Assembly: GCA_041082215.1 (NCBI GenBank)
Contig: JBDOIF010000093.1
Coordinates: forward strand, 5,504-69,503
Direction: 5' to 3'
DNA: 64,000 bases
Source: Anaerolineae bacterium
GTDB lineage: Bacteria; Chloroflexota; Anaerolineae; B4-G1; DUEL01
The notes below the pieces were generated by a model. That model saw nothing but the letters and a program-made list of their open reading frames with translations, ran no database searches and was not told where the DNA came from. The translations under genes and the position numbers were made by a program. Shown in pieces: positions 1 through 55,519 of the stretch; the first letter of the stretch is position 1, and the number at the start of each line of letters is the position of its first letter.

Positions 1-485
1 GGGTAGACCTCCCCCAGCCCCAGGGCGTAGAACTCCACCGACGCCTCACGCATGCGGGGGCTTTCCGCCTTGTTGGCTGCGACAAAGACCGGCTTCTGGG
101 AGCGACGGAGGATATCCGCCACCTCCATATCGGCGGGGGTCAGCCCCGCTGTGGCATCGGTGAGGAAGATGACCGCATCCGCCTCGCCGATGGCCAGCTC
201 CGCCTGGGCGCGGATGAGGGGGATAAAGGCCGCGGAGTCCTCCGTCAGCGGCTGCTCCGGCCCCGGACGGATGCCCGCCGCCACTTTCTCCGGCAACACC
301 TCGATGCCGCCGGTGTCCACCACGGTAAAAAGGACTTCGTTCCATTCGCAGGGAGCCTGCAACCGGTCGCGGGTCGTCCCCGGCCGCTCGTCCACCACCG
401 CGATCCGCTGGCCCACCAGCCGGTTGAAGAGCGTGGACTTCCCCACATTGGGACGCCCCACCAGCGCGACGATCGGCCGTTTCAT
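1..485 (-). CDS. der: GTPase Der/EngA, N-terminal part (gene continues beyond window start)
   Basis: Minus-strand translation begins MKRPIVALVGRPNVGKSTLFNRLVGQRIAVVDERPGTTRDR (P-loop G1 of Der). The ATG at 485 overlaps the stop of the upstream gene. Confidence 0.85.
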   Translation of the reverse strand, partial: MKRPIVALVGRPNVGKSTLFNRLVGQRIAVVDERPGTTRDRLQAPCEWNEVLFTVVDTGGIEVLPEKVAAGIRPGPEQPLTEDSAAFIPLIRAQAELAIGEADAVIFLTDATAGLTPADMEVADILRRSQKPVFVAANKAESPRMREASVEFYALGLGEVY

Positions 486-1732
486 GGAGACCTCCTGGGA
501 GTTGGCGTCGGTTCCACCCGGACCTCTACCTGAATGGTGGAGGGGAGAACCGACTGGGCCGTCACCCCTGCCGGCACCGCCACCACCTTCGGCTCGACGG
601 AGTGGCTGCCGGGGTTCAGGCCAAACAGGTCAACGATCACCCGCACGTCCTCATCCTTGAGCTGGTCCAGCACCGGCAGCGGCCCGCTGAGGATGACCTG
701 TACGGTCATCGGCGCGACGGTGGCGGTTATGCCCGGCTGGGCGAGCCCCTGAACCTCCACTGGCCGTTCTACCGTCAGGCTCCCCACCAGCGGCTCGACG
801 AAAACCCGCACAGCGACGACCGGTTCCTCCATCAACAGGGAAACCCCTTCCGGGACCAGGATGGGTAGCCGCATCTCCACATCCCCCTGCGCCCCCTCCA
901 GATTCAGCGGCTTTGTCTCCAGATAGCCCGGAATCTGGGCGATGAGGTCCGGCGGACCGTATGCCGTCACCACCGGCGGGTTCACGGTGATCCCGGAAAT
1001 GCGGTAGCCGGGGGCCACCTGCCCTTCCAGGAGCGCGGTGACGGCCAGGTCGCGGAAGCCGCTGAGCTGCTCGACCGGCACATAGACCGTAGCCTGGCCG
1101 GGGATGAGGGAGACGTAGGGAACAGGCTGTCCCTCCTCATCGAAGGGTTGGAGGACGAACTCCTCCTGGATGTCGGCCCGTGCCCCGTCCACGGAGACAA
1201 CGGCCACCGCCTCGACCACCCGGGTGACCAGCGAGGCCGGCCCGCTGACAACGACGATGGAGGGGATGACTTCGGGCTGTCGGGCTATATACCCCAGCGC
1301 GACGTCCCCCTCCAGACGCACACGGACCGGCACGGAAATGACCTCCGCCAGTTCCAGGTGGATCAGAATCGTCTCCGGGTCCACCTCCCGCACCATCACC
1401 GGGCGTCGGTCCACTTCCACCTGGACGGGAACCTGATGGGAACCCGGTCCGAGATGGCTGATGTCAGCGACGGCGTGGATCTGCTCAGGCTGGAGGTCCT
1501 GCCAGACCGACTCGGGGGCGCGGAGGGTGACCTGAACCTGGGCGTTCGTCTGCCCGTAGGCGACCATCCCCTCCGGCGGAGCCGAAAGGCGGACGGGGAC
1601 AGGGGAGGAGTATCGCCGCTCGATGGTGGGGTTTCCCTGTTCCACAGCCGCCAGCCAGACCAGCAAGGCCAGGATCAGAGAGAGGAGGAGCAATCCCAGA
1701 TTGCCGATCAGCCACCGGAATGCGCGCCTCAT
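482..1732 (-). CDS. cdaR: YbbR-like domain protein (CdaR-type regulator of diadenylate cyclase)
   Basis: An N-terminal TM helix is followed by repeated beta-rich modules. It sits directly downstream of cdaA with a 4-nt start/stop overlap. Confidence 0.65.
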   Translation of the reverse strand: MRRAFRWLIGNLGLLLLSLILALLVWLAAVEQGNPTIERRYSSPVPVRLSAPPEGMVAYGQTNAQVQVTLRAPESVWQDLQPEQIHAVADISHLGPGSHQVPVQVEVDRRPVMVREVDPETILIHLELAEVISVPVRVRLEGDVALGYIARQPEVIPSIVVVSGPASLVTRVVEAVAVVSVDGARADIQEEFVLQPFDEEGQPVPYVSLIPGQATVYVPVEQLSGFRDLAVTALLEGQVAPGYRISGITVNPPVVTAYGPPDLIAQIPGYLETKPLNLEGAQGDVEMRLPILVPEGVSLLMEEPVVAVRVFVEPLVGSLTVERPVEVQGLAQPGITATVAPMTVQVILSGPLPVLDQLKDEDVRVIVDLFGLNPGSHSVEPKVVAVPAGVTAQSVLPSTIQVEVRVEPTPTPRRSP

Positions 1733-2565
1733 CTCATCCCTCCGAAGCGGGCCAGCCAGCGTTGCAACCAGGAGGGCCAGAAGGACTCCAGCACAGGCTG
1801 ATGAAAGGCCAGAAGCACCCGTTCCAGCCGTTCAGGGTTCAGGTCGCGGATGATGCGGCCGTTGTGGGTGACCGATATAGCCCCCCGCTCCTCAGAGACG
1901 ACGACGCCGATGGCATCGGTCTCCTCGGTGATGCCCAGCGCAGCCCGGTGACGCAGCCCCAGCCGTCGGTCATCGAGGAACGCGGTGGAAAGGGGGAGGA
2001 CGCAGGCAGCGGCCAGGATCCGCCCGTTACGCAGGATAACCGCCCCGTCGTGGAGGGCCGTATGGGGGTCGAAGATGGTAACGAGGAGTTCCTGGGAGGT
2101 CTCCGCATCCAGCCTCACCCCTGTCTCGGCGTATTCCTGGAGGCCGGTCTCCCGTTCCAGGACGATGAGCGCCCCGATGCGGCGCTGGGAGAGGAGCCGG
2201 CAGGCCTCCACAACGGTGGATAGGGTCTGCTCCAGGGAGGCACGCTGTCCGGTGGGCCGGCTGAGGAGGGAGCCAGCCCGACCCAGCCGCTCCAGCGCCC
2301 GGCGCAGCTCCGGCTGGAAGATGACCGGTATCGCCACCAGGAAAGCAGGGAGGGCGCGCTCCACCAGCCAGCCGAACGCCCGGAGCTGGAACGCGCTCTC
2401 CAGGATGGCCAGAAAGATAATCAGCAGGATGATCCCCCGCAGCAGAGGGACTGCCCGGGTTCCCCGCACCAGGTAGAGGATAGCGAAGAAGATCGAAGCG
2501 ACCAGCAGGATGTCCAGCAGGTCGGTCCAGGTGATGCGCTCGACGAGCCACAACAGGTCAACCAC
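1729..2565 (-). CDS. cdaA: diadenylate cyclase CdaA (DisA_N/DAC domain, 3 N-terminal TM helices)
   Basis: DAC motifs are visible (TRHRAALGITEETDAIGVVVSEERGAISV). The ORF-track N-terminus (to 2853) runs into a repeat element and is not coding. A GTG at 2565 is preceded by GGGAGG. Confidence 0.8.
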   Translation of the reverse strand: MVDLLWLVERITWTDLLDILLVASIFFAILYLVRGTRAVPLLRGIILLIIFLAILESAFQLRAFGWLVERALPAFLVAIPVIFQPELRRALERLGRAGSLLSRPTGQRASLEQTLSTVVEACRLLSQRRIGALIVLERETGLQEYAETGVRLDAETSQELLVTIFDPHTALHDGAVILRNGRILAAACVLPLSTAFLDDRRLGLRHRAALGITEETDAIGVVVSEERGAISVTHNGRIIRDLNPERLERVLLAFHQPVLESFWPSWLQRWLARFGGMR

Positions 2566-2618
2566 CTTCAGCCTCCCTGGAATAAGTATACCATAGAGTG
2601 GGACAACTCGCACAGGTT

Positions 2619-2810
2619 GGGCGTATTTCAATTTCGGGGCGAGTGGTCCTCTCGCTCGCCGGTGGATCGCGAATCCCACGAATGGCCCGAATACAGCGAA
2701 CAGGAGGGATACCTGCTCCATTCGCGGTATTCGTTTCCACTTGCGCCATTCGTGTTTCCCCAGGTCCGGCCCGGGCCAGGGACATCTTGCCCCCAAACTG
2801 AAATACACCT
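2619..2810. mobile_element. MITE-like element copy A (about 190 bp, imperfect 21-bp TIRs GGGCGTATTTCAATTTCGGGGC / GCCCCCAAACTGAAATACACC, flanked by CACAGGTT duplication)
   Basis: It is about 85% identical to 31433..31624 and shares TIRs with 22760..22929. Eight of nine bases of the flanks are duplicated (gCACAGGTT / tCACAGGTT). Confidence 0.6.
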
Positions 2811-2900
2811 CACAGGTTATCCTACTTGCCCTTTCTACCTTTTTGTAGTACACTTAATATATAGAAACCAGAACCCGCCAAGGAGGTCAACGCAGTATCC

Positions 2901-3932
2901 ATGGCAGCCCAGGAAGGACGTAAGAAGGCATTAGAGGCGGCGCTGGCGGCGCTGACGAAACGGTTTGGGGAAGGGGCGGTGATGCGGTTGGGAGAGGCCA
3001 CCCACCTTACGGTGGAGGCCATCCCCACCGGCTCCCTCTCCCTGGATATCGCTCTCGGCGTCGGTGGCATCCCCCGGGGCCGCGTCACGGAGATTTACGG
3101 CCCCGATGGGGCGGGCAAGACCACCCTTGCCCAGCATATCGTCGCTGAGGCCCAGAAGCGGGGGGGCGTTGCCGCCTATATAGATATGGAGCACGCCCTC
3201 GACCCGACCTATGCCGCCGCCTGCGGCGTAGATGTCGAAAACCTCTACATCGCCCAGCCCGACACCGGGGAACAGGCCCTTGAGATCGCCGAAACCCTCG
3301 TCCGCAGCGGAGCCGTTGACGTCGTCGTCATTGACTCTGTCGCTGCCCTCGTTCCCCGCGCGGAGATCGAGGGGGAGATGGGGGATTCCCACCCCGGCCT
3401 CCAGGCCCGCCTGATGAGCCAGGCGCTCCGTAAACTCTCCGGAGCCATCAAGCAATCCAACACGGCTATGATCTTCACCAACCAGCTCAGGGAAAAGATC
3501 GGGGTGATCTTCGGCAGCCCGGAGACCACCACCGGAGGCCGGGCGCTCAAATTCTACGCCTCCGTCCGCCTCGACGTCCGCCGGGTGACTACCATCAAGG
3601 AGAAGGGCGAGGTGATCGGCAGCCGCACCCGCGTGCGGGTGACGAAGAACAAAGTCGCCCCCCCCTTCCGGGTGGCGGAGTTCGACATCATCTACGGCCA
3701 GGGCATCAGCCGGGAAGGGGACGTCCTCGACCTGGCAGTGGAGTACGGCCTGATCGAAAAACGGGGATCTTATTTCAGCTACAGGGGAGAAAACATAGCC
3801 CAGGGACGGGAGAACGCTAAGGTTTACCTCCGCGACCACCCGGAGGTGATGGCCGACATCGAGGCCCTTATCCGCGAAAAGGCCTTCGAGGTCCCTCCCC
3901 CCCTCCCCACCGAAGATGTCGAACCGGCCTGA
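2901..3932 (+). CDS. recA: recombinase RecA
   Basis: Walker [14 protein letters not shown], the L1/L2 regions and a full-length match to the RecA architecture. An RBS GGAGG lies upstream. Confidence 0.97.
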
Positions 3933-4865: not shown

Positions 4866-6394
4866 TGCCGATCTGGACAGTCATTTTAGGGGCAATTTTA
4901 GCCCTGGCCGCGGGTCTGGCCCTGGGATATTTCTTATTCCACTTCAGCGCACAGAGCCACATCCAGAAGGCCCAGGCGGAAGCCCAGCGTATTCTGGAGG
5001 AGGCGGAGAACGAGGCAAAGAACACCGTCCTGGCGGCAAAGGACGAGGCCCTGCAGCTCCGCAACGAGGCTCAGGCTGAGGTCACGCGCTGGAGGGAGAA
5101 CCTGCGGCGCGAAGAAGAGCAGCTCCAGCGACGGCGGGAGAGGCTCGACCAGCGACAGGAGACGCTGGACAAGCGGGAACAGGCTCTGAACAAGCGACAG
5201 AGCGCCCTCGACCGACAGCGGAACTGGGTGGAGCAACTTCAGGAGGAGCGGGTGAAGGCCCTGGAGCAGGTCGCCCAGATGACCCGCGAGGAGGCCCGAC
5301 AGGAGCTGCTGGCTGCGGTGGAGGACAGCGCCCGGCAGGATATGGCCCGGATCATCCGCGAGATCGAGCAGGAGGCAAAGGAAGAGGGGGAACGACGGGC
5401 ACGGGCGATCCTCACCACTGTGATCCAGCGCATCGCCAGCGAGCAGGTAGCAGAATTAACCGTCTCGTCGGTTGATCTGCCCTCCGATGAGATGAAGGGG
5501 CGCATCATCGGACGGGGCGGACGGAACATCCGCACCTTCGAACAGATAGCAGGAGTAGATGTGGTGGTGGACGATACCCCCGAGGCGATCACCATCTCCT
5601 GCTTCGATCCTGTGCGGCGCGAGGTCGCCCGACGGGCGATGGAACGGCTGATCACCGACGGCCGCATCCACCCCGGCCGCATCGAAAAGGTGGTGGCGGA
5701 TACCCGCAAAGAAGTGGAACAGATGATCCGGGAGGAGGGCGAACGGGCGATCTACGAGGCCGGCGTGCCCAGCCTTCATCCCGAACTGGTCAAACTGCTG
5801 GGCCGGCTCCGCTTCCGCACCAGCTACGGACAGAACCAGCATGCCCACGCTGTAGAGACGGCCAAGCTGGCCGCTCTGATCGCCGCCGAGCTGGGAGCTA
5901 ACGTCGAGGTGGCCCGGCTGGGCGGCCTCCTCCACGACATCGGCAAGGCGGTGGACTTCGAGGTGGAGGGCACCCATTCCCTTATAGGGGCCGACCTCTG
6001 CCGACGGTACGGCGTGCCGGAGGAGGTGGTCCATTGCGTGGAAGCTCACCACCACGAGCTGGAGCCGCAGACCATCGAGGCCATTATCGTGGAGGCAGCG
6101 GATGCCATCTCCGGCGCCCGGCCCGGCGCCCGGCGGGAAAGCCTGGAACACTATATCAAGCGGATCCGGGCACTGGAGGAGCTGGCCGCTTCCTTCCCAG
6201 GCGTCTCCGAATCCTATGCCATCCAGGCCGGACGAGAGATCCGCATCATTGTCAAGCCGGAAGAGATGGACGACCTGGGAGCGATCCAGCTATCCCGCGA
6301 CATCGCCCGCAAGATCGAGGAGGGGATGGAGTACCCGGGGCAGATCAAGGTGACGGTGATCCGCGAGACCCGCGCGGTGGATTACGCCAAATAA
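4862..6394 (+). CDS. rny: ribonuclease Y
   Basis: N-terminal TM helix, long coiled-coil, KH domain (GRIIGRGGRNIR) and HD domain (LLHDIGKAVD, HH motif). GGGAGG lies 10 nt upstream of the ATG at 4862, and ATGATG overlaps the recX stop. Confidence 0.92.
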   Translation: MMPIWTVILGAILALAAGLALGYFLFHFSAQSHIQKAQAEAQRILEEAENEAKNTVLAAKDEALQLRNEAQAEVTRWRENLRREEEQLQRRRERLDQRQETLDKREQALNKRQSALDRQRNWVEQLQEERVKALEQVAQMTREEARQELLAAVEDSARQDMARIIREIEQEAKEEGERRARAILTTVIQRIASEQVAELTVSSVDLPSDEMKGRIIGRGGRNIRTFEQIAGVDVVVDDTPEAITISCFDPVRREVARRAMERLITDGRIHPGRIEKVVADTRKEVEQMIREEGERAIYEAGVPSLHPELVKLLGRLRFRTSYGQNQHAHAVETAKLAALIAAELGANVEVARLGGLLHDIGKAVDFEVEGTHSLIGADLCRRYGVPEEVVHCVEAHHHELEPQTIEAIIVEAADAISGARPGARRESLEHYIKRIRALEELAASFPGVSESYAIQAGREIRIIVKPEEMDDLGAIQLSRDIARKIEEGMEYPGQIKVTVIRETRAVDYAK

Positions 6395-6665
6395 CGTAAC
6401 TGCCTACCCCGTGGGTTAATCGCTCCGCCTGGCCCTCACCCCACCCCCGCCCGCCTACAGCGGGCACCTCCGGGGAGGAGGTAGGGAGAGGAGTGAGGGC
6501 CCAAACTATCACCAGGTAGGTAGTTACCAAATAACGGCAATTACCCGCCCGCGTAACACAGGCCGCCAGGCCTGTGTCTCGCAGGCTGACTGGGGGGCCG
6601 ACGCAGGGGCCGACACAGGGGCCGACGCAGGGGCCGACACAGGGGCCGACGCAGTCGGCCCCTAC
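6395..6665. repeat. hairpin-rich GC-rich intergenic block between convergent genes
   Basis: An imperfect long inverted repeat GGCCCTCACCCC...GAGTGAGGGCC spans 6431-6500, and a 9-bp stem ACACAGGCC/GGCCTGTGT lies at 6556-6578. A tandem array follows. Confidence 0.6.
6594..6662. repeat. 12-bp tandem repeat (GGGGCCGACRCA x5) capped by an inverted copy forming a 9-bp hairpin
   Basis: ggggccgacgca ggggccgacaca ggggccgacgca ggggccgacaca ggggccgacgca gtcggcccc. Confidence 0.8.
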
Positions 6666-11825: not shown

Positions 11826-11863
11826 CTTTCCTGCCCTCCACGGTTGATATTGTAGGACAAGCT

Positions 11864-12985
11864 TCAGCCTGCCCTGCAACTGTATTCCGCCCCCTGTTCC
11901 CGCGCCGCCACGTACTTCATCCCTCCCACCTGACGGACCAGCCCTTTCAGCTCCATCATCGCCAGGGTGCTGGTAACCTGGGCAATGGGAAGGCCGACAG
12001 CCAGCCCCAGCTCATCCACGTGGGTCGGCTCCGCCCCCAGATGGGCAAGGAGCGCGGCCTCCGTCTCGCTGACCGGCAGGGTCTCCCGCGCCCGGGCCTG
12101 CTCCGCCGCCATCGCCAGATTCAGCTCCTCCAGAATGTCGGCAGGCTCCAGGACCATCTTTGCCCCGTCCTGGATGAGGCGGTTGGTGCCAGCGGAACCA
12201 GCGGCCAGGATGGAACCGGGCACGGCGAAGACCTCCCTCCCCTGTTCGGCGGCGTAGTCAGCGGTGATCAACGCGCCGCTGTCCCGGCCCGCCTCGGTGA
12301 TCAGCACCCCCAGGCTGAGGCCGCTGATGATCCGGTTGCGGGGGGGGAAGTTGCCCGGCTCCGGGGGAGTGCCCAGCGGGTACTCGCTGATCAGCGCCCC
12401 GTGGGCGGCGATCTGGCGGGCCAGCGCCCGATGTTCCGGCGGATAGACCCGGTCCACCCCGCAGCCCAGCACGGCGAGGGTCCGTCCTCCAGCCTCCAGG
12501 GCCGCCCGATGGGCCACCCCGTCAACACCCCGTGCCAGCCCGCTGACGATGGTGATCCCGCTCTGGGCCAGGGACGTGACCAGCCGATGGGTCACCTCCC
12601 GCCCATAGACGCTGATCCGGCGGGTGCCCACCACCGCTATCGCCCATTCGTCATCCGGCCTCAGCTCCCCACGGATGTAGAGGACCGGCGGCGGGTCAGG
12701 AACCTCCTGCAGAAGCCGGGGGTAACGGGGGTCTTCCCATGTGAGCACCTGCACCCCGGCGGCGGCGACCCGCTCGACCTCCCGTTCCAGGTCCACCGTG
12801 GCCCGGGCCTCCAGCAAATTCCTCAAGGAACGCCGGTCGAGTCCGGCCTGAAGAAGGGCGTCGGCAGGGGCATGCCAGGCCTGTTCCACATCCCCAAAGG
12901 CATCCAGGAGGGCCCGCAGCCGTGCCGGGCCAATGCCCCGGACCAGGTTGAAGCCGATGTAATAGCGCAGTGCGTCCGTTGCCAT
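11864..12985 (-). CDS. dprA: DNA processing protein DprA (Smf)
   Basis: The Rossmann-like DprA core (GLARGVDGVAHRAALEAGG...TLAVLGCGVD) and a C-terminal winged helix are present. The ATG at 12985 (MATDALRYY) is preferred over the long GC-rich ORF extension. Confidence 0.85.
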   Translation of the reverse strand: MATDALRYYIGFNLVRGIGPARLRALLDAFGDVEQAWHAPADALLQAGLDRRSLRNLLEARATVDLEREVERVAAAGVQVLTWEDPRYPRLLQEVPDPPPVLYIRGELRPDDEWAIAVVGTRRISVYGREVTHRLVTSLAQSGITIVSGLARGVDGVAHRAALEAGGRTLAVLGCGVDRVYPPEHRALARQIAAHGALISEYPLGTPPEPGNFPPRNRIISGLSLGVLITEAGRDSGALITADYAAEQGREVFAVPGSILAAGSAGTNRLIQDGAKMVLEPADILEELNLAMAAEQARARETLPVSETEAALLAHLGAEPTHVDELGLAVGLPIAQVTSTLAMMELKGLVRQVGGMKYVAAREQGAEYSCRAG

Positions 12986-20596: not shown

Positions 20597-20683
20597 TGGT
20601 GCCGAAGGTGGGAGTCGAACCCACACGGCCGTACGGCCACTGCGCCCTGAACGCAGCGCGTCTGCCAATTCCGCCACTTCGGC
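20597..20683 (-). tRNA. tRNA-Leu (anticodon CAG), type II with long variable arm
   Basis: Reverse complement reads GCCGAAGTGGCGGAATTGGCAGACGCGCTGCGTTCAGGGCGCAG...GGTTCGACTCCCACCTTCGGCACCA. The anticodon loop is CTGCG-TTCAGGG-CGCAG and the CCA end is encoded. Confidence 0.9.
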
Positions 20684-22427: not shown

Positions 22428-22661
22428 CTAGCCGGGTATCTCCGTCACCAGCGCATTGATGATGGCGATGATGAAGAAGAGGACGGAGAGGACAATGGTG
22501 ACGATAAAGAGCGTGCGCTCAACGCCACGCCGGGTGCGGTAGATCGAGGTCGCTGCCCCGCCGAAGACCGACCCCACGCCGCTGGACCGGGTCTGCAGCA
22601 GGATAATAACGATGAGAGCCGCACCCAGGATGATCTGCACGATGTTCAGATAGGTACCCAT
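22428..22661 (-). CDS. secG: preprotein translocase subunit SecG
   Basis: 77 aa with two TM helices; MGTYLNIVQIILGAALIVIILLQ is a typical SecG sequence. Confidence 0.85.
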   Translation of the reverse strand: MGTYLNIVQIILGAALIVIILLQTRSSGVGSVFGGAATSIYRTRRGVERTLFIVTIVLSVLFFIIAIINALVTEIPG

Positions 22662-22759
22662 ACGTCAATGTTCCTCCTGCCAGGTTGGAGGTGTTCCCTC
22701 CCGAAACCAGCGGCATTATAACACGCACCGCCACCGGTAGCAAGTGGACACCCCCTGTG

Positions 22760-22929
22760 GGTGCATTTCAGTTTGGTGGCGAGTTATACCTTGATTTTGC
22801 CCACCTGATGGTGGGTTGATCCCTCACCCCTCCCCCTACCCCCTCCCACCAGGGGGTGGGGTGAGGGCCAGGCAGAGCAATTAGCCTCCAGCGCAGGCAG
22901 TTACCACATCCTCCAAAAAACTGAAATGC
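22760..22929. mobile_element. MITE-like element copy C (about 170 bp) sharing GCATTTCAGTTT terminal inverted repeats with copies A and B, flanked by a CCCCCTGT duplication
   Basis: The 5' end is GGTGCATTTCAGTTTGGTGGCGAG and the 3' end is ...AAAAAACTGAAATGC. Flanks ccccctgtg / ccccctgtt are duplicated. The interior carries the CCCTCACCCCTCCCCCTACCCCCTCCC hairpin repeat. Confidence 0.5.
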
Positions 22930-22991
22930 CCCCCTGTTTTGCGCCCGTCTGAAAACCGGTATAATAAGGCATCCTCAGCGGAGGTGCGGCG

Positions 22992-24504: not shown

Positions 24505-24700
24505 CGACAACTGAATACGGCCTCGACAGAGGTGCCCCAAAGCCCGGATGTGAGGGGCACAAAGGGGGAAGACCGGTTCAAGTCCGGCGCTGTCCCGCAA
24601 CTGTAGGGACACGATTTGTCCGTGTCCAAGCCAGGATACCCGCCTCTGTCGGCGCCCACGCAACCTTCGCGGAAAGGGGGTGGCGCATGAAGGGCAAACA
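24505..24700 (+). promoter_or_regulatory. cobalamin (B12) riboswitch aptamer
   Basis: GGTGCCCC...AAGGGGGAAGACCGGTTCAAGTCCGGCGCTGTCCCGCAACTGTAGGGAC matches the conserved B12-element core (AAGGGAA-GGTGnAAnTCC...GCTGcCCCCGCAACTGTAA). Confidence 0.85.
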
Positions 24701-31405: not shown

Positions 31406-31432
31406 CAGGATGCGCAAGGGGTGTTCTCCACT

Positions 31433-31624
31433 GGGCGTATTTCCATTTCGGGGCGAGTGGTCCTCTCGCCCGCTGATGGATCGCGAATCCCACGAATGGC
31501 CCAAATACAGCGAACAGGAGGGATCCCTGCCCCATTCGCGGTATTCATTTCCATTCGTGCCATTCGTGTTTCCCCAGGTCCGGCCCCGGTCAGGGACATC
31601 CCGCCCCCAGACTGAAATACACCT
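31433..31624. mobile_element. MITE-like element copy B (about 190 bp) flanked by a 9-bp TTCTCCACT target-site duplication
   Basis: The element runs from GGGCGTATTTCCATTTCGGGGCGAGTGG to GCCCCCAGACTGAAATACACC. The flanks ttctccact / ttctccact are identical. It is about 85% identical to copy A. Confidence 0.65.
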
Positions 31625-31749
31625 TCTCCACTTCAGTCAGGTTTTGCGGATTGCGGATCCCGCGAATAGCCTGAATTCCAGGATGGATGGCGCTTTCATC
31701 CCTTTCGCGTCATTCACCCTCATTCGCGCTATCCGCGTTTTCCGGTTTG

Positions 31750-31778
31750 TTGACATCCCTTTGCATTGTGCTATAATT
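31750..31778 (+). promoter_or_regulatory. consensus sigma70 promoter TTGACA-17-TATAAT
   Basis: ttgacatccctttgcattgtgctataat, about 180 bp upstream of the 31961 gene. Confidence 0.7.
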
Positions 31779-31960: not shown

Positions 31961-33514
31961 ATGGGAAAAAAGAGCGGGCTATGGACCGTTGCGGTTGCGG
32001 CGGTGCTTGTTCTGGGGACCCTGTCGGGATGGGCAAATGCAGCGCCGTCGCTCCAGGGGACGGGAGAGAACCTGCTGAAGAACCCGGGGTTTGAGGGGCT
32101 CACCTGCAACCCGGCCTCTCCGCCGGGGTGGTGCTACGATAACTGGACCCGCGATACCTACAACGGGATTCCCTATGGGGAGATCTTCACTCCACAGGGA
32201 TGGGTCACGTTCTGGAGCGAGGGGACGAACCCGGCAGATGGGCGGAAGTACGGTCGGCCGGAGTGTAAGGTCATCCCCAAGCAAGCCCCCTTCCTGGGCC
32301 CTCCGGCCCGCATCCGCAGCGGGAACTACGCGATCATGCAGTTCGGTTTCTTCCGCGCCATTGACTCCGGCGTGTACCAGGTCGTCACCGGGCTGACGCC
32401 CCACGCCATCGTCCAGGCCTCCGCCTATGCCCACGCCTGGGCCTGCGGCGACGACGAGCACGGGGCCTACTCCTGCGGCGAGCCGTATCAGATGCTCTTC
32501 CGCGTCGGCATAGACCCCAACGGCGGCACCAATCCCTGGAGCCCGACCGTCATCTGGGCCAGCGGCTACTCGTACGACGAGTACCGCCTCATCGGCCCGG
32601 TGCAGGCCGAGGTGGGCGATGCTGGCACGGTTACCGTTTTTCTGCGGGCAACGGCCAAGTGGCCCCTGAAGCACAACGATGTCTACTGGGACGATGCCTC
32701 CCTGATCTACGTCACCCCGCCGGCCACACCGACCAACACCCCGCTGCCCCCGCCCCCCACGGCAACGCCCGGCCCCTCTCCCACTCCGCTGCCCACCCCC
32801 ACCCCCCGGCCCGATGGCGCCATCGTCCACATCGTCCAGCCGGGCGACACGCTCTTCGGCATCGCTCTCCAGTACGGCGTGCCGATGGAGCAGATTCAGC
32901 AGTTGAATGCCGGCTCCATCGGCCCCAACAATCTGATCCAGGTGGGTCAGGAGCTGGTCATCGCCATACCCTCCGCCACCCCCACCCCGGTTCCGCCCCC
33001 CACTCAGGTGGCAGAGGTCACCGCCACTCCTGCGCCCGCCGAGGTAGGGGCGGTCTGTGTGCTGGCCTACCATGACCGAAACGGGGATACCTTCCGGCAG
33101 CCAGACACAGAAGAGCCATTGCCCAACGCCGTCTTCTCCCTGGGCGATGCGAGCGGCCTTCTGGGGCAATACACCACCGACGGCCTGAGCGAGCCCTACT
33201 GCTTCACCGGGCTGGCCCCGGGCACCTACCGGGTGGCCATGCAGCCGCCAGCGGGCTATGTGGCCAGCGGGCCTTCCGACATGGCGCTCGCAATGGGCAC
33301 AGGGGGAGCGCTGGAAATAGCTATGGGGGCCAGGCGAGGCGAAGCACCGGCCACACCCGAAGGGTCGGAAGTGGTCCAGCCGGAACCCACAGAGGAGGCC
33401 ACCTCGGGCCTGCCGCTGGTGCTCCGCCGGGCGGCCGGCGTCAGCGGCATCCTGCTTCTGGGGCTGGCACTGGCAGTGGCCGTCCTCTTCGTCCTCTCCC
33501 GCCTGCGACGGTAG
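31961..33514 (+). CDS. secreted multidomain protein: carbohydrate-binding-like N-terminal domain, Pro/Thr linkers, LysM domain, SdrD-B/Cna-B-like domain, C-terminal TM anchor
   Basis: Signal peptide; NLLKNPGFE... beta-sandwich region; LysM (IVHIVQPGDTLFGIALQYGVPMEQIQQLN); a VCVLAYHDRNGDTFRQPD...GTYRV region; hydrophobic C-terminus followed by RLRR. Confidence 0.75.
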   Translation: MGKKSGLWTVAVAAVLVLGTLSGWANAAPSLQGTGENLLKNPGFEGLTCNPASPPGWCYDNWTRDTYNGIPYGEIFTPQGWVTFWSEGTNPADGRKYGRPECKVIPKQAPFLGPPARIRSGNYAIMQFGFFRAIDSGVYQVVTGLTPHAIVQASAYAHAWACGDDEHGAYSCGEPYQMLFRVGIDPNGGTNPWSPTVIWASGYSYDEYRLIGPVQAEVGDAGTVTVFLRATAKWPLKHNDVYWDDASLIYVTPPATPTNTPLPPPPTATPGPSPTPLPTPTPRPDGAIVHIVQPGDTLFGIALQYGVPMEQIQQLNAGSIGPNNLIQVGQELVIAIPSATPTPVPPPTQVAEVTATPAPAEVGAVCVLAYHDRNGDTFRQPDTEEPLPNAVFSLGDASGLLGQYTTDGLSEPYCFTGLAPGTYRVAMQPPAGYVASGPSDMALAMGTGGALEIAMGARRGEAPATPEGSEVVQPEPTEEATSGLPLVLRRAAGVSGILLLGLALAVAVLFVLSRLRR

Positions 33515-39128: not shown

Positions 39129-39499
39129 TGTCTATCCTCCAGGAGCAGGACAGGCTGAAGCTTGTCCTACAAGGGACGAGGCCGTGGACCCAAGCCCACG
39201 GCCTCGAGAAGACGGAGGGATAAACTTAGAGAAACGAAAAGGCCGTGGGTTTTGCAGGCGCCCACGGCCTTGATGACTTTATGTCAACCGCCGCCAGGCG
39301 CACTGCGACAGGGCAAAACCCGAGGACCGCCCTCATTGCGGACCCGGATCGCGCCGCTCAGCTTGGACATCGCAGTGCGCATCTTCGACCTCCTCCAGGA
39401 TTCAACACTTATTGTACTCCAGAATCAGGAATTGTCAAGCAGGGAAGCGGAAGGTATAATCGGAGAGATGGCCACAGACTCTCAGGAAGGATAGGCGGT

Positions 39500-52129: not shown

Positions 52130-52210
52130 CGAGCGACGGATGACGAGTGGCGTCAAACGTCAAACGTCAGGCGTCAGGCGGATGACGAATGACGAATAAC
52201 GAATGACGGA
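52118..52210. repeat. heptad repeat array: GATGACGA/TGACGAA copies flanking CGTCAAA-CGTCAAA-CGTCAGG-CGTCAGG (partly inverted symmetry)
   Basis: Read directly from the sequence. It is related to the array at 54777..54858. Confidence 0.7.
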
Positions 52211-54381: not shown

Positions 54382-54772
54382 CTGGTTGTTGCTGGTGTTT
54401 GTGGGCGGGCTGGCGGCACTCTGGTTGCTCCTGCACACGCCAGGCACGGAGCTTGCTTCAACGGCAGAGTTCGACCGGCGGGTCTCCGTCGGCCGGCCGG
54501 TGGTGGTCGAGTTCTACTCCAACACCTGAAGCGGATGCCTTCTGGCAAAGCCTGTCGTGGACAGGCTGGAAAGGGAGCTGGAGGGGCGTGCAGAGGTGGT
54601 GCGGGTGGATGCGATGACGCAGGTGGGAGCCGAGCTGGCCCGACGATACGGCGTGCGCGGCGTGCCCACCCTGCTGGTCTTCGACGGGGCTGGACAGGTG
54701 GTCTACAGCGGGGTCGGTCTGCCAGACAGGCAAGCGATTACGACAGCGGTGGATCGGGTTTCCGGGCAGTAA
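54356..54772 (+). CDS. membrane-anchored thioredoxin-fold protein with in-frame TGA at the CxxC position (candidate selenoprotein, UxxC = T-U-S-G-C)
   Basis: AGGAGG RBS. An N-terminal TM helix is followed by VVVEFYSNT-TGA-SGCLLAKPVVD...YGVRGVPTLLVFDGAGQVV. The TGA lies at 54527-54529, and the two ORF-track pieces (54317..54529 and 54557..54772) are in the same frame with no other stop between them. Confidence 0.55.
54549..54567 (+). promoter_or_regulatory. candidate bacterial SECIS hairpin AGCCTGTC-gtg-GACAGGCT, 22 nt downstream of the in-frame UGA
   Basis: Perfect 8-bp stem seen directly in the sequence; the apical region contains GU. Confidence 0.4.
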
Positions 54773-54776
54773 GATC

Positions 54777-54858
54777 GGGCGTCAGGCGTCAAACGTCAGG
54801 CGTCAAACGTCAGGCGTCAAACGTCAGGCGTCAAACGTCAGGCGTCAGGCGTCAGACG
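54777..54858. repeat. heptad tandem array (CGTCAGG/CGTCAAA alternating, about 11 copies)
   Basis: ggcgtcaggcgtcaaacgtcaggcgtcaaacgtcaggcgtcaaacgtcaggcgtcaaacgtcaggcgtcaggcgtcagacg. Confidence 0.85.
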
Positions 54859-54862
54859 TTGC

Positions 54863-55519
54863 CTACCAGGCCTGCCCCCGACCGGTCAGGACCCGCACCA
54901 GCAACCCCACCGCCAGTCCGCTGACAAACCCGCCGATGTGGGCAAACCAGGCCACTCCGCCCGTCGCCACGCTCATTGTGCCCAGACTGAGGAAGCCGTT
55001 GAAGAGCTGAAGGACGAACCAGAAGCCCAGGACGATGAGGGACGGCACACGGGCGATGCGCATCATAAAGTAGCCCGGCACCAGCACCCGCACCGGCGCG
55101 GCCGGGAAGAGGACCATATAGACGGCCAGGACCCCGGCGATGGCCCCGCTGGCACCGACACCCGGCACGGTGGAAGAAGGAGCGATGATCACCTGGGCCA
55201 CCCCTGCCGCGATCCCCGCTGCCAGGTAGAACAGCGTGTATCCCACCCGCCCCAGCGCATCCTCCACGTTGTCGCCGAAGATCCAGAGGTAGAGCATATT
55301 GCCAATCAGGTGAGCCCAACCCCCGTGGAGGAACATCGAGGTGAAAAGCGTGACCGCGGCCAGGGGATGGTCCATCGGGTCGGTGATATAGGCCGGGACC
55401 GCCCCCCAGCGCATAAAAAACCGGTCCACCCGCGAGCCCAGCATCAGCTCATACAGAAAGACCAGGACGTTGACCCCGATCAACCCCCAGGTGACCACCG
55501 GCACCCGACGACTGGGCAT
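54863..55519 (-). CDS. rhomboid family intramembrane serine protease
   Basis: GASGAIAGV catalytic Ser motif and a downstream His in TM6. The ATG at 55519 (MPSRRVPVVTW) is preferred over the GC-rich upstream extension. Confidence 0.85.
   Translation of the reverse strand: MPSRRVPVVTWGLIGVNVLVFLYELMLGSRVDRFFMRWGAVPAYITDPMDHPLAAVTLFTSMFLHGGWAHLIGNMLYLWIFGDNVEDALGRVGYTLFYLAAGIAAGVAQVIIAPSSTVPGVGASGAIAGVLAVYMVLFPAAPVRVLVPGYFMMRIARVPSLIVLGFWFVLQLFNGFLSLGTMSVATGGVAWFAHIGGFVSGLAVGLLVRVLTGRGQAW

Follow-up and report, generated by a model that had tools for sequence, protein, structure and literature searches.

Classical bacterial miniature inverted-repeat transposable elements (MITEs), such as Correia/NEMIS of Neisseria, RUP of Streptococcus pneumoniae, and Nezha of cyanobacteria, are small, non-coding, multi-copy, hairpin-forming sequences that are bounded by terminal inverted repeats (TIRs), flanked by target-site duplications (TSDs), and moved in trans by the transposase of an insertion sequence (IS). 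Their IS families, TIRs, and TSDs (TA for Correia) are other than those considered here, and we know of none that homes to a fixed distance from a promoter. Such homing is documented for other elements (Guerillot et al. 2014, PMC3942029): 13 ISs of the ISKra4 group insert at a fixed distance upstream of sigmaA promoters, as do TnGBS and ISLre2, whose distance from the -35 box is 15-17 bp and most often 16. The same work places the ISKra4, ISMich2, and ISAzba1 groups in 'p-MULT 4', Mutator-like DDE transposons with inverted repeats of 18-39 bp that bear a conserved C at the terminus, 8- or 9-bp direct repeats, hosts that include Chloroflexi, and probably a circular transposition intermediate; ISs with two nearly identical inverted repeats insert in either orientation, and -1 frameshifting is given for ISMich2 and a single open reading frame (ORF) for ISKra4. 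In the portion of its Table S1 consulted here, ISKra4-group termini start GGGTGC... or GGGCGT... and direct repeats are 9 bp; ISAcce1 is listed as GGGTGCATTTAATTTCCGCG. The subject of this analysis is a 192-bp element, copy A, that lies between the divergent recA and cdaA genes in a 64,000-nucleotide stretch (hereafter, the window) of an Anaerolineae bacterium (contig JBDOIF010000093.1, positions 5,504 to 69,503). Copy A is very probably a MITE of a large Chloroflexota family that is derived from, and presumably mobilised in trans by, ISKra4-family ISs, and that integrates upstream of promoters.

As a small, non-coding hairpin bounded by TIRs and TSDs, copy A is like the classical bacterial MITEs. 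With the ISKra4 family, it has in common the GGGTGC/GGGCGT start of its termini (ISAcce1, in the same portion of Table S1, begins GGGTGCATTTAATTTCC), and the repeat family to which it belongs has in common 8-9-bp direct repeats, Chloroflexi hosts, and, in its full-length relatives, a transposase that matches model NF033572 end to end. Insertion 15-16 bp upstream of the -35 box is likewise found both here and in the 13 members of the ISKra4 group. However, ISKra4-family ISs are 1.2-3.7 kb long and encode a transposase, whereas copy A has 192 bp, no transposase, and an unrelated interior; the parent clade has two ORFs with a +1 shift at a T/C run, whereas ISMich2 has a -1 frameshift and ISKra4 a single ORF; and TSDs are mostly 8 bp here versus 9 bp in the ISKra4-group rows consulted. 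TnGBS and ISLre2 are similar to this family in insertion 15-17 bp upstream of sigmaA -35 boxes and in 8-9-bp direct repeats, but they have a different transposase family (model NF033529) and Firmicutes hosts. At the superfamily level only, there is an analogy with eukaryotic non-autonomous Mutator-like elements (MULEs) and Pack-MULEs, which are also Mutator-superfamily derivatives with 8-9-bp TSDs, foreign interiors, and a preference for gene 5' ends (PMC3942029), but which are eukaryotic, much larger, and carry gene fragments; a second copy in the window, copy B, whose interior is another repeat family, parallels the foreign interiors of Pack-MULEs.

Structure and distribution of the family

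Copy A is a real MITE and displays every structural hallmark of one: small size with no transposase ORF, TIRs, a TSD of fixed length, and multiple dispersed copies. Its left end is GGGCGTATTTCAATTTCGGGGCGAG and its right end, reverse-complemented, is AGGTGTATTTCAGTTTGGGGGCAAG; the TIR arms (2620-2649 and 2780-2809) extend over 30 nt and are 80% complementary. A preliminary description of this DNA had proposed imperfect TIRs of 21 bp and a near-perfect 9-bp flanking duplication (gCACAGGTT / tCACAGGTT). The TIRs are indeed imperfect but are about 30 nt long, and the duplication exists but is the perfect 8-mer CACAGGTT; a mismatched 9-mer appeared because the right copy was begun on base 2810, a T that is the final base of the element itself and that is also present in copy C, the third copy in the window. 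The ORFs that cross copy A are all short and are artefacts of frame.

The motif GYRYATTTCARTTT, allowing at most one mismatch, occurs six times in the window and forms three inward-facing pairs (copies A, B, and C), whereas 0.02 occurrences are expected from shuffled sequence and none of 100 shuffles reached six. Copy C matches copy A at 92% identity across 193 nt. The interior of copy A has no relation to the parent IS and is common only to copy C; the shared portion comprises 141 nt at 91.5% identity without similarity to ISs. The earlier proposal of a MITE family with GYRYATTTCARTTT termini is thus borne out by the TIRs and TSDs, by the presence of more than one copy in the window and of hundreds of relatives outside it, and by matching IS termini that identify a cognate family of transposases.

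A palindromic, intergenic, repeated sequence might also be expected of repetitive extragenic palindromes (REP/BIME-type repeats) or of other palindromes spread by a non-DDE mechanism (RAYT/Y1 transposase), and a single inverted repeat might arise by chance. REPs, however, are 20-40 bp long and have no TSD, whereas these elements have 8-bp TSDs and 30-nt TIRs that match those of a DDE-type IS, and chance predicts far fewer motifs than the six found; we give almost no credence to either idea. A structured cis-regulatory RNA or a small RNA gene, i.e., an immobile hairpin in the cdaA leader or upstream of recA, would account for the strong folding of copy A (a single long hairpin of -96.5 kcal/mol, z = -5.9) and for its location between two regulated genes. 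No Rfam covariance model matched at the position of copy A at gathering score, however, and a near-identical copy and a termini-only copy adjoin unrelated genes; 8-bp direct repeats and termini common to transposase-encoding ISs are not features of RNA genes, and copy A lies upstream of both likely promoters. An RNA is therefore a highly improbable explanation.

The family was traced further by scanning one genome per GTDB species for the 23-nt TIR pattern GYGYATTTCARTTTSGKGGCRAG, for which about one chance match is expected by our own estimate. At least 74 stretches in about 29 assemblies (metagenome-assembled genomes, MAGs) matched, all but one of them labelled Chloroflexota, and none of the 74 stems from the genome that contains the window. 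Among the matches listed, host labels are Anaerolineae, Anaerolineales, Thermoflexales, Ardenticatenaceae, or Caldilineaceae, and a single MAG contributes up to at least 14 loci. A partner TIR is found 100-350 bp away in most loci, and many matches are at contig ends. The ends are GGGCGT... and ...ACACCT in copy A, and the latter is ...GCACCC in most members. Across 41 candidate pairs, nine have perfect 8-mer TSDs and a further five match at 7/8, with a different sequence at each site; two further pairs have perfect 9-bp TSDs with the element ends as called. The family TSD is mostly 8 bp, with 9 bp in L040, L067, and the second element of L055. Automated pairing of TIRs also produced false pairs (L007, L011, L030, the second of L037, the 159-bp pair of L040, L050, L061, and L066), which were not used as evidence but inflate the class of elements with neither TSD nor promoter. 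A 20-mer from the interior of copy A, ATCGCGAATCCCACGAATGG, was also tried as a probe of metagenomes; it gave four matches, none of them a copy, at least two being in a gcvH-like coding sequence (...YRESHEW...) and one in a hairpin of ATTCGTG repeats.

Short-read contigs bear on copy A itself. Those of this strain, from at least four runs, extend 28-30 nt into copy A from either side and stop at 2646 and 2781 (contigs L085-L087 and L001-L002 in Logan), and all contigs recovered by a look-up of the ybbR-like neighbour were short ones terminating within copy A. The breaks show that those samples contain copy A and that the sequences of its ends recur in the genome; breaks inside both ends are as expected for a multi-copy repeat. 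They are also a practical example of MITEs fragmenting Chloroflexota MAGs.

Insertion upstream of promoters

In examining targeting, flanks were read outward from 106 element ends, derived from the loci above and from the window; identity between any two flanks never exceeds 53% across 60 nt. Apart from positions 16-21 (T/T/G/(A or G)/C/(C or A)) and 39-44 (T/A/n/A/A/T), the base composition is even. When a promoter-like site is defined by at least 4/6 matches to each hexamer, at least 9/12 in total, and a spacer of 16-18, 21 ends have a -35 box that begins at offset 16 and a further 12 have one that begins at offset 17 (33/106 overall), and no other offset from 1 to 54 is represented more than three times. 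At random sites in the same loci, only 0.09% are promoter-like (binomial P ~4e-73). Of the paired elements, 26 had a promoter called at just one of their two ends, and no pair had one called at each end. Elements lie in both orientations relative to the promoter, in a ratio of about 13 to 10 by our own tally from TIR sequences; this differs from TnGBS, where the promoter faces one particular end, and such a fixed orientation, which was considered, is ruled out for the present family by the tally.

An association with promoters could in principle reflect survival, random insertions having persisted only where they were harmless, upstream of genes. Intergenic insertions are generally better tolerated, and neither copy C nor the IS in L040 is at a promoter, both of which fit such a bias. 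Nevertheless, a peak at offsets 16-17 that is sharp to 1-2 nt, with almost nothing at the neighbouring offsets, cannot stem from selection after insertion alone and is the signature of targeting directed by the transposase; identical spacing is also documented for related transposases. Survival bias as the whole explanation is thus very unlikely. The targeting might be caused by contact between the transposase and RNA polymerase or its sigma factor. Overall, the flanks show that fixed-distance promoter targeting also holds for miniature derivatives in Chloroflexota. The novelty is in where these MITEs insert; the specificity itself has already been published for TnGBS, ISLre2, and the ISKra4 group. 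A 2022 survey found that ISKra4 and ISLre2 insertions favour positions 50-250 bp from genes and contained no more on targeting; copy A, 91 bp from the recA ATG, and copy B, at its distance from the secG ATG (Table 1), fit that preference.

Copy A occupies the position that is most common in the family. Outward from its right junction, the sequence reads cacaggtt ATCCTAC TTGCCC, spacer, TACACT, AAGGAGG, and the recA ATG at 2901; the -35 box thus starts 15 nt after the junction, i.e., at offset 16, the family-wide mode. The motif TTGCC[C/T]-N16-17-TA[C/A]ACT is conserved in three relatives that have 90% RecA identity and a different upstream gene, and similarity between the window and these relatives ceases about 4 nt upstream of the -35 box. 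The closest RecA proteins (90-91% identical, from genomes labelled Anaerolineae, Thermoflexales, or Thermoflexia) are encoded in loci that retain recA-recX-rny but have a gene for an FAD-binding dehydrogenase subunit upstream instead of cdaA; because cdaA and recA are not adjacent there, only the promoter could be compared. Both the family-wide offset and the conservation in relatives were necessary to recognise this promoter, as a consensus promoter scan of 2400-3000 at a 9/12 threshold found nothing. As a separate observation, comparison of window positions 2826-2860 with L077, L078, and L080 shows strong conservation of the recA promoter together with its spacer (TTGCCyTTTCCCCACTTTCGTAGTACACTTAAT), and the spacer may hold a site for a regulator, such as a LexA site.

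On the other side of copy A, the sequence TGGTATACT is probably the only plausible cdaA promoter, which would place copy A upstream of the cdaA promoter as well as of that of recA; relative to the predicted start sites, copy A would be at about -50 for recA and about -41 for cdaA. Copy A is therefore most likely not transcribed as part of the cdaA leader, and the preliminary description, which had correctly put the insertion in the recA-cdaA divergent region, was probably wrong in assigning it to the cdaA 5' leader. It was right that the N-terminus of the long cdaA ORF is spuriously translated through the element. The 374-amino acid ORF (1729..2853) crosses copy A, and its alignment to the CdaA model TIGR00159 (236 bits) begins only at ORF residue 109, which corresponds to profile position 11. 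This identifies the GTG at 2565 as the real start codon, and the 96 codons upstream are spurious. Thus, the cdaA annotation loses a false N-terminal extension, and the recA promoter is pinpointed.

The insertion added 200 bp to a cdaA-recA control region of roughly 135 bp. As its TSD is perfect, cdaA and recA were already neighbours before the insertion, and the sequence shows a control region that is split by a mobile element with both core promoters undamaged. The insertion may affect recA or cdaA expression; -35 and -10 hexamers in the element ends that might form hybrid promoters with the flanks of copy A or C were sought by eye, and none was convincing.

Parent insertion sequences and proposed mobilisation

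Three full-length ISs of about 1.43 kb (in L040, L015, and L012) carry the family termini. The left TIR of copy A is most like the right inverted repeat (IRR) of the IS in L040, whose reverse complement is GGGCGTATTTCAGTTTGGGGGCGAGTTGT, and the ISs of L040 and L015 bear the termini of copy A across genomes. Each IS has two overlapping ORFs. Against NF033572 (ISKra4 family), these align to profile positions 18-97 and 100-421, respectively, and orfB by itself reaches 204.9 and 206.4 bits. The orfB frame is +1 relative to orfA in all three ISs, which have 50-57% amino acid identity, and the switch is at a T4-6C4-6 run, GGGTTTTTTCCCCATGG or GGTCTTTTCCCCCCT (L040 1900-1925; L015 405-430; L012 555-575); a +1 slip on CCC_C or transcriptional slippage would fuse the two frames. 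A conceptual +1 fusion of the L040 ORFs scores 269 bits against NF033572 (cut-off 205) over positions 18-421 of 422 and more weakly, 109 bits, against the TnGBS/ISLre2 model NF033529, which is below the cut-off of 200. Nearly all of the 120 best orfB homologues have lengths of orfB only. The orfB clade is abundant in metagenomes, with 2647 proteins at E <= 1e-20, mostly on contigs of 1.4-2 kb, which is the appearance of a multi-copy IS that assembles alone. Judged by its termini, its TSD length, the transposase of its full-length relatives, and its target rule, copy A is a derivative of the ISKra4 family. ISKra4-family ISs with matching termini, which could supply the cognate transposase that the earlier description suggested looking for, exist in other genomes; none was found within the 64-kb window.

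The transposase stop codon lies within the IRR (...AAC TCG CCC CCA AAC TGA aatacgccc), and two MITEs of 205-207 bp (L023 and L059, from the same MAG as the L015 IS) retain the last 44 transposase codons (residues 293-336), so that internal deletion is directly attested as the origin of MITEs of this kind. Copy B has the ends of an L015-type IS, its left end matching the IRR and its right end the left inverted repeat (IRL), with 30-nt matches at 96.7% to L015, L021, L023, L059, and L060. These same facts could suggest that each copy is merely what is left, in situ, of its own full-length IS after loss of the internal sequence, and that the short form itself never transposed: L023 and L059 still hold transposase codons, copy B has the ends of an IS, and internal deletion is how such elements originate. 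However, the interior shared by copies A and C is not IS sequence, and a different perfect TSD flanks each of the two, which shows that the short form, once it had arisen, was itself copied. Sets of MITEs of equal length in other MAGs (227-228 bp and 267 bp) argue likewise, and segmental duplication of A and C is opposed by their unrelated flanks. Separate decay of individual ISs is accordingly an unlikely origin for these copies.

Mobilisation of the short form in trans would proceed as follows. ISKra4-family ISs with Mutator-like DDE transposases ('p-MULT 4', Guerillot et al. 2014) would supply the enzyme, which would recognise the ~30-nt termini (GGGYGYATTTCARTTTSGKGGC...). Excision would be via a circular intermediate, by analogy with IS256 and TnGBS, and integration would use a staggered cut of 8 bp, sometimes 9 bp, positioned to leave 15-16 bp between the end of the element and the -35 box of a sigma-70/sigmaA-type promoter downstream. 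Copy A would have landed upstream of the recA promoter in this way, pushing two promoters about 200 bp apart and breaking neither core promoter.

Several observations weigh against derivation and targeting of this kind. With two ORFs and mostly 8-bp TSDs, the parent ISs fit ISMich2 better than they fit the promoter-targeting ISKra4 group of the 2014 classification, and the three full-length ISs have no clear promoter adjoining them, three copies being too few to be informative on this point. A tblastn search of the 64-kb window found no ISKra4-type transposase gene, and a partner in the same genome is thus unproven. The recA promoter matches at just 4/6 + 4/6, under the threshold of the promoter scan, and no recognisable promoter adjoins copy C, where there is no -10 box and the TTG at offset 16-18, the place normally taken in this family by the first three bases of a -35 box, is the start codon of a glycosyltransferase gene. 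Finally, the empty site is reconstructed as ...GGGACAACTCGCACAGGTTATCCTACTTGCCC..., and the exact 22-mer across its junction, AACTCGCACAGGTTATCCTACT, had no match in metagenome contigs; with no empty-site allele found, mobility at the copy A locus is argued from the TSD and from the existence of several copies.

TnGBS, ISLre2, and ISKra4 have already made the mechanism known, but a large Chloroflexota swarm of miniature derivatives that obey the 15-16-bp rule seems to be undescribed: full-text literature searches that combined MITE with ISKra4, ISLre2, or TnGBS, or that addressed MITEs in Chloroflexi, found no description of a promoter-homing MITE swarm. We suggest, though only tentatively, that this is the first MITE swarm to be recognised for a promoter-homing Mutator-like transposon, which would belong to an abundant, Chloroflexota-wide ISKra4-family clade with a +1-joined two-ORF transposase, mostly 8-bp TSDs, and delivery 15-16 bp upstream of the sigmaA -35 box. 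If so, each copy is a natural tag of a functional promoter in uncultured Anaerolineae, and a copy that falls between divergent promoters (recA/cdaA, secG/M20 peptidase) could uncouple the two or re-tune them. Chloroflexota is a phylum with almost no experimental genetics; MITE junctions could provide a free map of sigma-70-type promoters in uncultured Anaerolineae from sequence alone, and the many insertions, each independent of the others, offer material for work on the reading of promoter architecture by a DDE transposase. In addition, hundreds of unannotated short repeats in Chloroflexota MAGs, which also cause assembly breaks, are tied to one IS family.

Copies B and C and other features of the window

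Table 1. Features of the window and of the full-length insertion sequences (the latter in coordinates of their own loci)
Feature	Position	Strand	Description
MITE copy A	2619-2810		192 bp, reads GGGCGTATTTCAATTTCGGGGCGAG...CTTGCCCCCAAACTGAAATACACCT
Copy A left TSD	2611..2618	.	CACAGGTT, identical 8-mer at 2811-2818
Copy A left TIR	2619..2649	+	GGGCGTATTTCAATTTCGGGGCGAGTGGTCC; closest likeness is the IRR of the ISKra4-family IS in L040
Copy A interior	2650..2779	.	Non-coding imperfect palindrome of CGAAT/ATTCG motifs
Copy A right TIR	2780..2810	-	Reverse complement AGGTGTATTTCAGTTTGGGGGCAAGATGTCC
Copy A right TSD	2811..2818	.	CACAGGTT
recA promoter	2826..2854	+	TTGCCC (2826-2831), 17-nt spacer, TACACT (2849-2854); read from sequence, conserved in relatives
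Putative cdaA extended -10	2585..2593	-	TGGTATACT, between copy A and the cdaA start; predicted, unflagged by the consensus scan
cdaA coding sequence	1729..2565	-	GTG start at 2565; GGGAGG Shine-Dalgarno 6 nt upstream
MITE copy B	22759..22933	.	Shares only termini with copy A, ~30 nt per end
Promoter at copy B	22715..22743	-	TTGCTA-N17-TATAAT, 15 nt outward of left junction (offset 16), faces secG
secG	22428-22661	-	Copy B is 97 bp from its ATG
MITE copy C	31433..31624	.	92% identical to copy A; perfect 8-bp TSD TCTCCACT at 31425-31432 and 31625-31632
L040 IS	1505-2933		1429 bp; TSD GATGGCAAT; inside a response-regulator gene
L015 IS	1-1448		1448 bp
L012 IS			Third full-length copy, left end decayed

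Copy C is 15 nt upstream of the TTG start (31417) of a gene for an HpsO-like GT4 glycosyltransferase; in support of that start, profile position 1 aligns with ORF residue 30. The GGAGAA Shine-Dalgarno of the gene is within the duplicated target of copy C (left flank 31415-31432). Copy C parts the gene from its former upstream neighbour, and the gene must now be either transcribed from within or through copy C or silenced, as judged from its position. Exact-protein look-ups of CdaA and the glycosyltransferase, both with corrected starts, returned no record. Beside copy C is a hairpin (31647-31735) of GCGGAT/GCGAAT ... ATTCGC/ATCCGC motifs with a DNA fold of z = -3.4, after which a near-consensus promoter, TTGACA-N16-TATAAT (31750-31777), faces a gene at 31961. 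A blastn comparison found nothing in common between this hairpin and the CGAAT-rich interior that copies A and C share; a comparable hairpin of ATTCGTG repeats occurs in an unrelated low-GC metagenome contig (L083).

The right tip of copy B has probably lost 4 nt, in which case its TSD would be CCCCCTGT. Inside it lies a decayed member of a second MITE-like family, the nested element at about 22790-22904 being 77% identical to the other member and partly decayed. That other member, at 6396-6527, is 132 bp long; its TIRs are GTAACTGCCTAC and, read as the reverse complement, GTAACTACCTAC, and the 8-mer CAAATAAC at 6388-6395 and 6528-6535 forms a perfect TSD. It is inserted right at the end of rny, and a short-read contig breaks inside it at 6442.

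The only matches to Rfam in the window at gathering score are a cobalamin riboswitch at 24513-24661 (+), with 75.8 bits, and a tRNA gene at 20600-20683 (-). Tandem arrays of the heptamers CGTCAGG and CGTCAAA, of up to about 15 units, are found at 52130-52195 and 54766-54873. A 33-nt sequence at 11850-11882, TTGTAGGACAAGCTTCAGCCTGCCCTGCAACTG, recurs inverted at 39140-39172, 27 kb away, with 91% identity and may represent another small repeat family.

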